A DNA stretch of 64,000 nucleotides, from the NCBI RefSeq assembly GCF_964204645.1, contig NC_134025.1, positions 682,001 to 746,000 on the forward strand, written 5' to 3'. The translations under genes and the position numbers were made by a program. The notes under the pieces are model-generated. The model saw only the letters and a list, made by a program, of their open reading frames with translations. It did no database searches and was not told where the DNA came from. Below, in pieces: positions 47,052 to 63,878 of the stretch (position 1 is the first letter of the stretch; each line of letters opens with the position of its first letter). Source of the stretch: Tubulanus polymorphus (Eukaryota; Animalia; Nemertea).

Positions 47052-47164
47052 ATGTTTAAGAAGGTTGCTATGAAGAAGTTGCAGTTGACACGTAGTGTCA
47101 TGATGGTTTCTGGGATGAAGGAAAAGATGAAGGCGGAGACGGCAAGATCGGATACAGATTCTGT
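47052..47164 (+). CDS. Alternative first exon V1 (MFKKVAMKKLQLTRSVMMVSGMKEKMKAETARSDTDS)
   Basis: ATG, 37 codons + 2 nt, then GT|GTAAGT (phase 2). Confidence 0.7.
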
Positions 47165-48691
47165 GTAAGTTTATCGTGTAGTTTATTTTACAGGTACTAA
47201 TATGTACTCAATAATTTGTCATCAGGTTTTTGAGTAGTAAAGTCATCTACTTATAACCTTTTGACTTTTCAGTATTGTCTTATGGTCAGTCACGTGTACC
47301 TAAGAAAAAGCTACAAAGTTAAGGTTTTTAGGTTTTTTATACCAATAATCTAAAACCGCTTGATAACAGTAATGATCGAATAAGTTTGAATGATTTCTAA
47401 TTTTTTTCAAACTTTATTTCTATTTTCATTTTTCAAATTTCTTAGTTTATGATATCACGGGTGATACCGCTGGTTAAAATGAGCTCGATGTCATTGTCAA
47501 TATAAAGTCCATAAATGATAGTTAGTTTTTAGTTTTTAACTAATATCGTTTTAACGACCAAAACACTAAAACCAGTTTTGTCATATATTTTGTTGTCAGA
47601 CTTTGTATTCTCACTCAGCGGGCTTCTCATTATTATTTTCCGTTTGAAACAGTTTTCACAATAAGCAGTCGTTATCATGTAATCTAATTTTAAAGCTACG
47701 CTGAATTTGAATAGCGATTTATAGATAATGTCGATTATAAATGAAAGCTTCCATACCATTGATATATATGGTTCTACCGCTGGTAAATATTAGTAATACC
47801 TCGTTATCTATATTTAAACTAAGACTGTAAATAAATAATAGAAATCGGTTTTATTTGCGTTGACAATTGACAAATATTTCTGTAACAACATGTGAAACGA
47901 ATAAGATATGTACTGTTGGATTTTCCCGAGGTGACATTCTGACAGATAATTGGTCCTTCAAACAACTGCCAATAAAATTTTATTTACTTAACCATGGAAA
48001 CATGTGAGGTTAATAGCCAGGACTCCCCACGCTAATTCAAACCCAGTGGTAGAACCCAGTGGTAGAACCAGCGGGTACAGTCCCAGTGGTAGATACGGAG
48101 TGTAAGGATATCCCCTCAGAGAGGCATTCAGACTGTGAGCTGAAAGATTTACGTTTTTTAAAGCCTATCAGTTACATATTGAAGATTATTTCCCCGATTA
48201 CACCTTTCTATCATATTTTCTTATCTTCCACTTTTGGAAATGGAAATTCCTTAGGAAGTTGGTGAAAAATTGTTGCTTGCCGGCTTATTCTTTAGTTCAC
48301 AGGTTAGGGTAAATTCTCTGCTGCAGGGCCGGGTTACAGGTAACCATGCTGACAGGTTACAGGTTCAGATTACATCGAAAACGCCGTTGCTATTTAAATT
48401 AATGAAATGTCAACACGATGTTTTACCATTTTATTCATCCTGTTTTTACGACTTGATCAGAGAGCAATAATTCATCATCAGACACGACATGAAACGATAT
48501 TAACATTAATAGTTTATTCCGGTTGTGGTTCATGGGTCTGTTCTGTTGAAGAGATGAATAGCAGCGTCAGCAACAGCAGCAGCAGCTACATCGATATAGA
48601 ACTGAAATTCTAGACGGGATCTTGAGGAACTTTTCGGTGACAAGTTTTTCGAAATGTGATTTTGAATGTATATGGAGTGTATTATAGTATA

Positions 48692-48771
48692 ATGGATGCA
48701 CTAGACCGTAGATTGTCGAGACCTTGTTCTCAGGATTTATTCAATACTTTTAGATCGAATACTACTTTAAG
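48692..48771 (+). CDS. Alternative first exon V2 (MDALDRRLSRPCSQDLFNTFRSNTTL)
   Basis: ATG, 26 codons + 2 nt, then AG|GTAAAT (phase 2). Confidence 0.6.
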
Positions 48772-48849
48772 GTAAATAATAGATTAACATCTTCATTATC
48801 ATTCTTCGCCTCTTCCTCACTATTATCTACTCTTATAGATATAGGTGAT

Positions 48850-49503
48850 AGGGAGAGGGAGAGGGAGAGGGAGGAGAGGGAGAGGGAGAGGGAGAGGGAG
48901 AGGGAGAGGGAGAGGGAGAGGGAGAGGGAGAGGGAGAGGGAGAGGGAGAGGGAGAGGGAGAGGGAGAGGGAGAGGGAGAGGGAGAGGGAGAGGGAGAGGG
49001 AGAGGGAGAGGGAGAGGGAGAGGGAGAGGGAGAGGGAGAGGGAGAGGGAGAGGGAGAGGGAGAGGGAGAGGGAGAGGGAGAGGGAGAGGGAGAGGGAGAG
49101 GGAGAGGGAGAGGGAGAGGGAGAGGGAGAGGGAGAGGGAGAGGGAGAGGGAGAGGGAGAGGGAGAGGGAGAGGGAGAGGGAGAGGGAGAGGGAGAGGGAG
49201 AGGGAGAGGGAGAGGGAGAGGGAGAGGGAGAGGGAGAGGGAGAGGGAGAGGGAGAGGGAGAGGGAGAGGGAGAGGGAGAGGGAGAGGGAGAGGGAGAGGG
49301 AGAGGGAGAGGGAGAGGGAGAGGGAGAGGGAGAGGGAGAGGGAGAGGGAGAGGGAGAGGGAGAGGGAGAGGGAGAGGGAGAGGGAGAGGGAGAGGGAGAG
49401 GGAGAGGGAGAGGGAGAGGGAGAGGGAGAGGGAGAGGGAGATAGGGAGAGGGAGAGGGAGAGGGAGAGGGAGATAGGGAGATAGGGAGATAGGGAGATAG
49501 GGA
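48850..49503. repeat. (GGGAGA)n microsatellite, ~100 copies
   Basis: Almost pure polypurine hexamer. It produces the spurious poly-GR ORF. Confidence 0.97.
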
Positions 49504-50141
49504 AATAGAGGGACTGGGACCGTACCGATATAAATATACGATATCTTCTATTGTTTAGAAATAGCCGAAGATCCCACTACACCCGTCCGCCGTCCACACC
49601 GATCTTTAGAATTTCTGATACAATTCGAGTTTCAAATGAATATATAATAATCTGGTGCTATTGTTTTATATGAAGTCGATTTGACTTGATAAATAAGTAA
49701 TTTCTAAATTCGTCGTATCTATTCGATTCGACCATATACATTTATACGGAGAGAGTCGTAGTCAACTAGAGACGCCATCATTAATCACTAACAGGAATAC
49801 AAAACGTACATTTTCATCTTATCGTGTTTTAATTAAGTCATTACTATCAAATTACACTAAATGGTATAAACTCACGTGGATGCAATGGAATACATGGATA
49901 AAATGGCATATAGAAATTAGGCGTGATGAGGTCATGTGGGAATTGGCAAATCAGCTGAAAGTCAAATCGAAAATTGGAGCCGTCTGTTGCTATAGTTTTA
50001 GGAAGCCTTCATTGCACCTTGTGGAAACTTTGCAGTGTCTAAAATCGTTTTGATAACTTTGCATTTGAAAATTAATTATCAACTTTATTTAATTGTATTG
50101 GTGCGGTTTTCAATGCGGTTTTACGTAATGTAATAATCATT

Positions 50142-50389
50142 ATGTCTCGGTCACAATCAATGATTGAAGTTCGTAAACAACAGAAAAAAGTCTTAATTGA
50201 TGAAAATAACGTCGTTCAAACGTCACCGCGTAACACGAGGTCCCGGAGTCGAACCTTCGCCGGGCTAGGCCATCAGGATCGCGCCCCTAGCGGAGGAATA
50301 TTGAAACATTCTGATAGTAATATATCTTTAAATCGTCATGATTTGAATTCAGCCGTAAAAAGAAAGGATTCAGTTTGTGGAGCAGTATC
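50142..50389 (+). CDS. Alternative first exon V3 (MSRSQSMIEVRKQQKK..KRKDSVCGAV)
   Basis: ATG, 82 codons + 2 nt, then TC|GTGAGT (phase 2). Confidence 0.75.
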
Positions 50390-62173: not shown

Positions 62174-62352
62174 CAGCAGCAGCAGCAGCAGCAGCAGCAG
62201 CAGCAGCAGCAGCAGCAGCAGCAGCAGCAGCAGCAGCAGCAGCAGCAGCAGCAGCAGCAGCAGCAGCAGCAGCAGCAGCAGCAGCAGCAGCAGCAGCAGC
62301 AGCAGCAGCAGCAGCAGCAGCAGCAGCAGCAGCAGCAGCAGCAGCAGCAGCA
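62174..62352. repeat. (CAG)n microsatellite, ~59 copies
   Basis: Pure trinucleotide run with no supported exon boundaries. Confidence 0.97.
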
Positions 62353-62709
62353 TCCCCCCATCGGTCCTCTCCTCATGTTCCTACGTTAAATCCATTGTTA
62401 TGCTGATTTGTATTGTGTAAAGGTTATTAAACTAATGCAAGCACGATGGTTGCGGCACACGCATGCGGCACACACGTAGCACACGCAGCACACCGGGCGC
62501 ATGCAGCTTATATGTGTGTTCAATGCGTCATTGTAGTTTTACCTGTGAACATATGGACGTCTCTCATTAAAACTACAGTCAGTTGATGTCAGTCAACGCT
62601 ACAGTTAGTATCACTTGTAGAATAGCGTAGAGAGAAGGAGAGGTAGCTAGCTCGCGGGGCGGGGGTCTTCTAACCCCCCCCCAAAAAATACGGGCTCGCT
62701 TTATTCAAA

Positions 62710-62750
62710 ATGGTTTATACAAATAGGAATCATTTATCAGTCACTGCCGG
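62710..62750 (+). CDS. Alternative first exon V12 (MVYTNRNHLSVTA)
   Basis: AAAATGG start context, 13 codons + 2 nt, then GG|GTGAGT (phase 2). A GC-box (GGGGCGGGG) lies about 50 bp upstream. Confidence 0.6.
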
Positions 62751-62846
62751 GTGAGTCATTAAAATAATTGTTGTAATTATTATTAATTAGTAATTGATTA
62801 ATTAATGTCTAGATATAATTCGATCTTTATTAAACGGTTATTCTTT

Positions 62847-62872
62847 ATGACGACAATAACGTGCGTGCGTAG
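62847..62872 (+). CDS. Possible alternative first micro-exon V13 (MTTITCVR)
   Basis: ATG, 8 codons + 2 nt, then AG|GTAAAT (phase 2). It is short enough to be chance. Confidence 0.3.
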
Positions 62873-63771
62873 GTAAATACAGTTCGTGTGTTTATATTAT
62901 TTGGAATAAAAACAAGAGGATATTTTTAGAATTTTTTCAATTCGACAATTTAGGGAATATATTCAGATTTCACGTAAGTTTAAACATTACGGATTAACCG
63001 CGTTTTAATAAGAACATGATTTCTTTAAGTAATGTTTGTGTTATGTTGAGATATTGTATGGAGTATTAGAGATTGTGATATAGTAGCGCAGAAACATGTT
63101 TTATAAAATCAATAATTGTGTCCTATGTCTGTTGTACAGTTGTGGTTATGATTATATAGTACTATGTTTATATCAGTATGCAGACAGCAGCAGCAGTACT
63201 GCGGTGCCCTGTCGTATCATAACATCAAAACCCAATATATACAAATTTATAAGATTTAAAACGATATCTAAAATTAAGACGCAATATTTCAGACTCTCTC
63301 TAGAGACATGATGTAATCTTTTACATTTCTATACAGTGGTTTATATATCATTTCTCCACAACTGAGGGTATCGGCCTATTTAACTATTTGTTAGATATTT
63401 GATTAAGAATTTGTAAATAACATTCATAATATATCTAGATGAAATTCATAAACAGATATATGAATTTTAGATTTCAATATTTTTATCAATTAAAGCATTT
63501 TCATCATGAATTGCTCAGATTTCATCGACATCATTGATTAAATTCATACAAGAATTTTTGTGATCCTATAAATAAATTCCACGTATTTGTTGTCAAAGTT
63601 AATAATTTAGCAGTTAAAACCTGTTTAGGTAATAATTCTGTAAGTCAGATATTTTTCTCACGGTTCAGTCAGTGTCAGTCACACCGTTGAAAGTTGAAAA
63701 GTTTTATTCTGGTGATTTTATCAGAATCTCTGAGGATTAATTGATTTATATTTATTACTGGATCGAGTTTG

Positions 63772-63878
63772 ATGATGTCACGTGTTGGTACGGCAAAAAA
63801 ATGGACAACAAAAACAGCAGCCGGAGGCAAAACAGAACATCATAACATCTCATCTAAATGGGAAATGGCTTTAGCCGG
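63772..63878 (+). CDS. Possible alternative first exon V14 (MMSRVGTAKKWTTKTAAGGKTEHHNISSKWEMALA)
   Basis: ATG, 35 codons + 2 nt, then GG|GTTTGA (phase 2, weak donor). Confidence 0.4.

Follow-up and report, generated by a model that had tools for sequence, protein, structure and literature searches.

This report concerns a 64-kb stretch of DNA of the nemertean Tubulanus polymorphus (64,000 nt of contig NC_134025.1; the whole stretch is referred to as the window, and positions are counted from its first base). On the plus strand, positions 47052-62750 hold a row of eleven or twelve segments that open with ATG and end at a phase-2 donor, i.e. a GT located 2 nt into a codon. Judged by the DNA sequence, the segments probably serve one gene as alternative first coding exons; the shared body of that gene would lie beyond base 64000. 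Elsewhere the window carries InaF-motif genes, rhodopsin-type G protein-coupled receptors (GPCRs), a major facilitator superfamily transporter, FAM32A and galaxin-like repeats, which identifies it as animal DNA.

The row of candidate exons and its donor phase

A sequence-only reading of the window had named twelve such segments with their donors. All twelve were found to start with ATG at the base given, to be free of stops and to reach a GT 2 nt into a codon. In order along the strand they are 113, 80, 248, 158, 83, 104, 98, 110, 179, 500, 65 and 41 nt long and are spaced by about 1.1-1.6 kb. The open reading frame (ORF) ends at 50393, 51503, 52913 and 58808 are indeed nothing but the TGA within GTGAGT. 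Donors are perfect in nine exons and good in two (48692 and 59193).

Each candidate adds 2 nt of a split codon to the residues counted here. Several of the encoded N-terminal peptides (heads) contain R[RK]xS, the consensus of cAMP-dependent protein kinase (PKA). Candidate exon 1 (47052-47164, 37 aa) is basic and Met-rich and ends at GTAAGT at 47165. Candidate exon 2 (48692-48771, 26 aa, donor AG/GTAAAT at 48772) encodes one R[RK]xS and one Cys. It is followed by candidate exon 3 (50142-50389, 82 aa, GTGAGT at 50390) with one R[RK]xS and candidate exon 4 (51342-51499, 52 aa, GTGAGT at 51500) with three of them and a start that resembles exon 2. Candidate exon 5 (52827-52909, 27 aa) ends at GTGAGT at 52910. 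Candidate exon 6 (53907-54010, 34 aa, GTAAGT at 54011) has two R[RK]xS and a possible acceptor at 53902, 5 nt 5' of its ATG. Both candidate exon 7 (54852-54949, 32 aa) and candidate exon 8 (56175-56284, 36 aa) end at GTAAGT, at 54950 and 56285, respectively. Candidate exon 9 (57538-57716, 59 aa) is weaker by its poor donor AG/GTCTGT at 57717, yet it encodes two R[RK]xS besides a His run. The longest head stems from candidate exon 10 (58305-58804, 166 aa, CAG/GTGAGT at 58805), whereas candidate exons 11 (59193-59257, 21 aa, GTAAGA at 59258) and 12 (62710-62750, 13 aa, CGG/GTGAGT at 62751) are short.

Two additional frames that the earlier reading had listed as weaker are both doubtful. The one at 62847-62872 (plus strand, 8 aa plus 2 nt) does have a phase-2 donor, AG/GTAAAT at 62873. 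For the one at 63772-63878 (plus strand, 35 aa plus 2 nt) there is only a weak donor at 63879, and the frame continues to a stop after 51 aa. An extra phase-2 candidate at 54145-54215 was set aside owing to a weak donor and a composition unlike the other heads. Two repeats lie within the array, 104 copies of AGGGAG at 48850-49473 and 60 copies of CAG at 62174-62352. A 26-nt likeness (85%, E value 0.005) connects 46631-46656, 400 nt 5' of exon 1, with 48655-48680 just 5' of the exon 2 ATG.

The common phase had earlier been valued at a chance of (1/3)^10. This is overstated: ORFs that stop in GTRAGT are phase 2 by construction. Since selecting such ORFs by eye could bias toward phase 2, we scanned from the donor side, taking GTRAGT sites on the plus strand of 46500-64000 and counting only ATG frames of 39 nt or longer. 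The phase bias itself withstood this unbiased scan. Ten of 13 GTRAGT sites close an ATG frame, and the counts for phases 0/1/2 are 0/1/9 (binomial p 0.001, corrected for three phases). The minus strand of the same region served as control and gave 1/2/1 from 11 donors. In local shuffles with donors fixed, phase-2 frames average 1.25, and none of 5000 shuffles reaches 9 in any phase. The phase-2 share is likewise higher among the array donors (9/13) than among pooled control donors (10/58; Fisher p 5e-4). The trend was the same (0/1/8) when donors were scored by a generic weight matrix of approximate weights, although this gave low scores to several perfect donors. For two neighbouring genes, too, the donor scan picks up what appears to be the first exon (34367 and 40152).

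Short frames that end right after a GT might also be stand-alone small ORFs for short basic peptides, and in 12 of the 14 candidates (all but 57538 and 63772) TAA or TGA directly follows the split codon. Such a stop is however automatic with a phase-2 GTRA donor. ATG ORFs that end in the full G/TRA/GT make up 9 of 91 on the plus strand and 1 of 91 on the minus strand, a difference that calls for splicing as its explanation. Moreover, none of nine read-through peptides looked up occurs in the public protein collection, as was also the case for one neighbouring gene queried alongside. We regard the small-ORF explanation as very improbable.

First-exon features and the encoded peptides

The start contexts fit translation. 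In 10 of 11 exons position -3 is a purine (background 0.53, p 0.01), and in 7 of 11 position +4 is G (background 0.20, p 0.002). Acceptors were scored with a weight matrix built from only 14 neighbouring acceptors, 11 of which score at least 2 in leave-one-out. The earlier statement that the array lacks acceptor-bounded exons stands for 13 of 14 candidates, which have no in-frame phase-2 acceptor scoring at least 2; it fails within exon 2. There a phase-2 acceptor with a score of 4.5 is present, and the last 18 nt (48754-48771) could be a phase 2-2 symmetric microexon. Other internal candidates (48303 and 56611/56683-56744) look chance-like, and no convincing internal coding exon was seen in the 17-kb array. 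Perfect plus-strand donors at 57964, 58129, 62974 and 63640 have no phase-2 ATG frame; they may close non-coding leader exons.

These features bear on a further possibility: the exons are real and coding, but not all are first exons on one acceptor. Some would chain, e.g. exon 1 to the microexon 48754-48771 or through leader exons that use the four frameless donors, or groups would join the body at separate entry exons, as PDE4 long and short forms and TCF4 do. The good acceptor in exon 2, the four donors and a weak candidate of 20 nt (62954-62973, with an open frame entering in phase 2 and leaving in phase 1) would suit such chaining, which phase 2-2 exons allow without frameshift. The other 13 ATGs, on the contrary, have no in-frame acceptor ahead and are preceded by stops 1-50 codons upstream, 17 kb yield no convincing internal coding exon, and a phase common to all would be expected with a single acceptor. 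Hence chaining or multiple entry appears unlikely, although it is the most credible of the rival explanations. Taken together, the sequence evidence supports the array segments as probably translated, ATG-opened, phase-matched 5' exons devoid of an internal acceptor.

Sequencing run X1, genomic as judged by its even coverage, departs from the window at many positions and offers a view on polymorphism. Differences were taken from the 40 of 164 rows listed, leaving out one row outside the first two contigs of the run. None of the resulting 39 differences falls in exons 3 and 4; these two make up 406 nt of the 2519 covered, and 6.3 differences would be expected there (Fisher p 0.001). In a circular-shift control, zero occurs in 116 of 2518 shifts (p 0.046). 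Indels show the same direction without significance: among the 12 shown (of 39) none is in an exon, with 1.5 expected.

All 14 peptides have a positive net charge, and Ser plus Thr make up 24% of residues. The heads are probably disordered. R[RK]xS occurs 10 times in six heads, whereas shuffled versions of the peptides give an expectation of 1.6 (p 1e-4); xS comes next after 10 of 15 R[RK] pairs. Restricted to the nine exons that the donor scan picked by itself, the count is 7 (1.4 expected), and the two other plus-strand frames contain 1 each. Owing to this frame specificity the excess is independent evidence of translation. Furthermore, it points to control of the heads by a basophilic kinase.

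The heads were previously called non-homologous. This holds insofar as the best pairwise E values are 0.19-0.8 and the exons share no DNA similarity. It does not hold for the starts of exons 2 and 4 (48692 and 51342), where 8 of the first 11 residues are common, kinase site included (2 of 3000 shuffles; the likeness was noticed by eye first). This likeness may go back to an ancient duplication or to convergence. From its single sequence, the 166-aa head was modelled at low confidence (mean predicted local distance difference test score, pLDDT, 54; predicted template modelling score 0.18). The model is coil except for three helices at residues 70-105, the middle one with pLDDT near 70-77, which may be a binding helix.

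Concerning promoters, the CpG observed/expected ratio is at least 1.05 in the 400 nt 5' of 10 of the 14 ATGs, while neighbouring gene bodies at 35-43 kb show 0.63-0.97 per kb. Three sequencing runs over 49560-62150 are genomic-DNA-like. X1 covers 30 of 30 bins. Runs X2 and X3 display GATC-doubled loose ends, which are typical of Hi-C. No joint was found at any donor in these runs, which says nothing about expression.

Database searches and neighbouring genes

The heads were compared with annotated proteins of defined length. The 166-aa head gave no isoform match among proteins of 292-2000 aa, and the 82-aa head none at an E value of 1 among those of 145-2000 aa. A pooled alignment of 10 heads found nothing at an E value of 10 among proteins of 105-2000 aa; this test is weak as the profile mixes unrelated peptides. 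There was also no match for the heads among 1.84 billion representative proteins, no usable match in an Atlas search and no match to metagenome contigs by DNA pattern or protein. In Pfam no head exceeded the cut-off, with a single chance match at an E value of 0.1. Two of seven window proteins looked up are present in the public protein collection, hence the assembly is annotated. That no annotated isoform turned up could mean that the exons are unannotated, that a different representative stands for the merged isoforms or that the protein is longer than 2000 aa. The last case would favour a large channel or a cytoskeletal linker.

The last plus-strand gene before the array is a YccV-like gene (PF08755, 40152-43074). 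As it ends at about 43074 and is followed by a GPCR and a GPCR fragment on the minus strand, no upstream plus-strand gene is left open to feed the array. The YccV-like gene has a duplicated pair of 120-nt exons (41032-41151 and 41632-41751) and duplicated last exons (42474 and 42978). The former are probably used in a mutually exclusive manner, and the latter probably provide alternative 3' ends.

Elsewhere in the window, an intron of an alpha/beta-hydrolase-like gene, presumably ABHD12-like, holds a 37-bp unit 12 times in tandem (35767-36222); every copy includes the end of the exon together with a GTGAGT donor. Three intronless InaF-motif ORFs with unrelated basic N-termini lie within 7 kb on the minus strand (19679-19981, 21282-21602 and 26615-26917; the Pfam and Atlas check covered the third only). 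Near-identical intronless copies of a rhodopsin-type GPCR are located at 13616-14698 and 15614-16714 (plus strand) and at 43940-45070 and 45535-45927 (minus strand). Their poly-Ser tracts vary in length, and one copy is a fragment. A multi-exon Cys-rich gene at 4700-11400 (plus strand) contains galaxin-like repeats below the curated cut-off.

The proposed gene and related systems

In the arrangement we propose, every exon would have its own promoter, and the promoter in use in a given cell type would pick which head of 13-166 aa is joined to one phase-2 acceptor. The body would stay constant while the head varies. Basic, Ser/Thr-rich heads would set the location of the protein by electrostatic binding to membranes or the cytoskeleton; the 166-aa head might alternatively act via a partner-binding helix. 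In the six heads with R[RK]xS, PKA or a related basophilic kinase would switch location or binding. Further first exons may be located beyond the window.

A number of observations weigh against this arrangement. No constant exon was seen in the 64-kb window, and no annotated isoform with these heads was found among proteins up to 2000 aa. If donors are defined loosely, as GT[AG]A, the phase counts are 14/17/20 and the phase-2 excess is nearly gone. The plus strand of 1-46499 leans to phase 2 as well (4/2/7 of 26 donors, with the donor-bearing repeat masked), in part because real exons of neighbouring genes are located there. The coding frame is not preferred by a synonymous-codon model for which eight neighbouring ORFs served as training set (totals -10, -32 and +15), and the polymorphism test spans only two exons and 40 of 164 rows. 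R[RK]xS was spotted by eye first and tested after. Also raised is R[RK]xxS, one other of eight variants (5 versus 1.6, p 0.017); in one reverse frame the R[RK]xS count is 2 versus 0.3 (p 0.03). Finally, the exons share no promoter motif; the best 5-7-mer reaches p 3e-4, uncorrected, with thousands tested.

From such observations one could conclude that few of the exons are in use, the remainder being start exons that have decayed or see little use, or that a partly chance set surrounds a few real ones. The missing protein matches, the silent codon model and the weak donors of 62847, 63772 and 57538 agree with this. Chance alone, on the other hand, expects about 1.25 phase-2 frames where 9 are observed, the motif excess and the start contexts hold across the set, and exons 3 and 4 carry no listed differences. 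We therefore judge this explanation improbable, more so than chaining, and maintain that a row of alternative first exons is the probable one.

For the body we consider most likely a signalling enzyme that is regulated by feedback from cyclic nucleotides. Our leading guess, a tentative one drawn by analogy, is a class I cyclic-nucleotide phosphodiesterase (PDE), with the remainder spread over kinases, channels and cytoskeletal linkers. Several PDE families join their first exons in phase 2. On the opposite side, the sequence gives no direct pointer to a PDE: no upstream conserved region (UCR) or catalytic exon is present in the window, and the searches gave no hit of any head to a known PDE head, although such heads diverge fast and a PDE is compatible with the lack of hits.

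Plectin, to which the sequence-only reading had compared the locus, is an apt parallel. Its first exons join in phase 1, whereas the array is in phase 2, and nothing indicates that the body here is a plakin. The array shares with a plectin-type gene the tandem ATG-opened exons of one donor phase, with no acceptor ahead of the coding part and no body exons in between, exon 2 being the exception. About a dozen variable first exons, candidate ones in the array, with short, largely unrelated heads are common to both. In plectin, twelve variable first exons, nine of them coding, each join the common exon 2 (PMC3695321), and their short unrelated heads determine location (PMC3695321, PMC8391331).

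Clustered protocadherins and UGT1A resemble the array in combining variable first exons with constant 3' exons. In contrast, their variable exons are large paralogs; those of the array are short and, one pair apart, unrelated. Paralogous variable exons as in a protocadherin/UGT1A-type cluster were not found here beyond the 11-residue likeness in that pair. TCF4 differs in another respect: its 5' exons enter at several internal exons, while the array exons are all of one phase and upstream of any body exon. As many as 18 N-termini result from the numerous, mutually exclusive 5' exons of TCF4 (PMC3137626).

Likeness to PDE4D, dunce and PDE10A consists in tandem 5' exons and in kinase sites of PDE heads that control location or binding. 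Ser13 of PDE4D3 is located in the unique head. Its phosphorylation by PKA raises mAKAP binding (PMC7770493), and phosphorylation of Thr-16 in the unique N-terminus of PDE10A2 relocates this protein to the cytosol (PMC4872433). In Aplysia, the short form of PDE4 attaches to membranes by electrostatic interaction (PMC6827574). PDE4D has tandem 5' exons with separate promoters upstream of a shared exon and eight conserved long forms (PMC2929239), and for Drosophila dunce several promoters as well as unique N-termini are described (bioRxiv 10.64898/2025.11.29.691281). What separates the array from these genes is that no UCR or catalytic exon accompanies it in the window and no head gave a Pfam family match. 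In PDE10A19 the first intron distance is 111 kb (PMC4872433), as compared to a spacing of about 1.1-1.6 kb in the array.

The design itself is thus known from plectin, PDE4D and TCF4; unrelated first exons are not new, and the array so far exemplifies that design rather than a new mechanism. Its exon number is toward the upper end for such loci. Distinctive here are the high count and close packing of unrelated exons, together with their common kinase motif. A bolder view, which we rate as possible but doubtful, is that the gene is outside the known multi-promoter families, with twelve or more independently arisen first exons in 16 kb, half of which converged on PKA sites and serve as kinase-switchable address tags on one protein. 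If confirmed, the array would equal or surpass plectin with its nine coding first exons and PDE4D with its eight conserved long forms, in an invertebrate, and would mark isoforms that are apparently absent from the public protein collection. The stretch would moreover be compact enough to be studied as a whole, and would test how unrelated first exons originate and how they gain the same regulatory motif.

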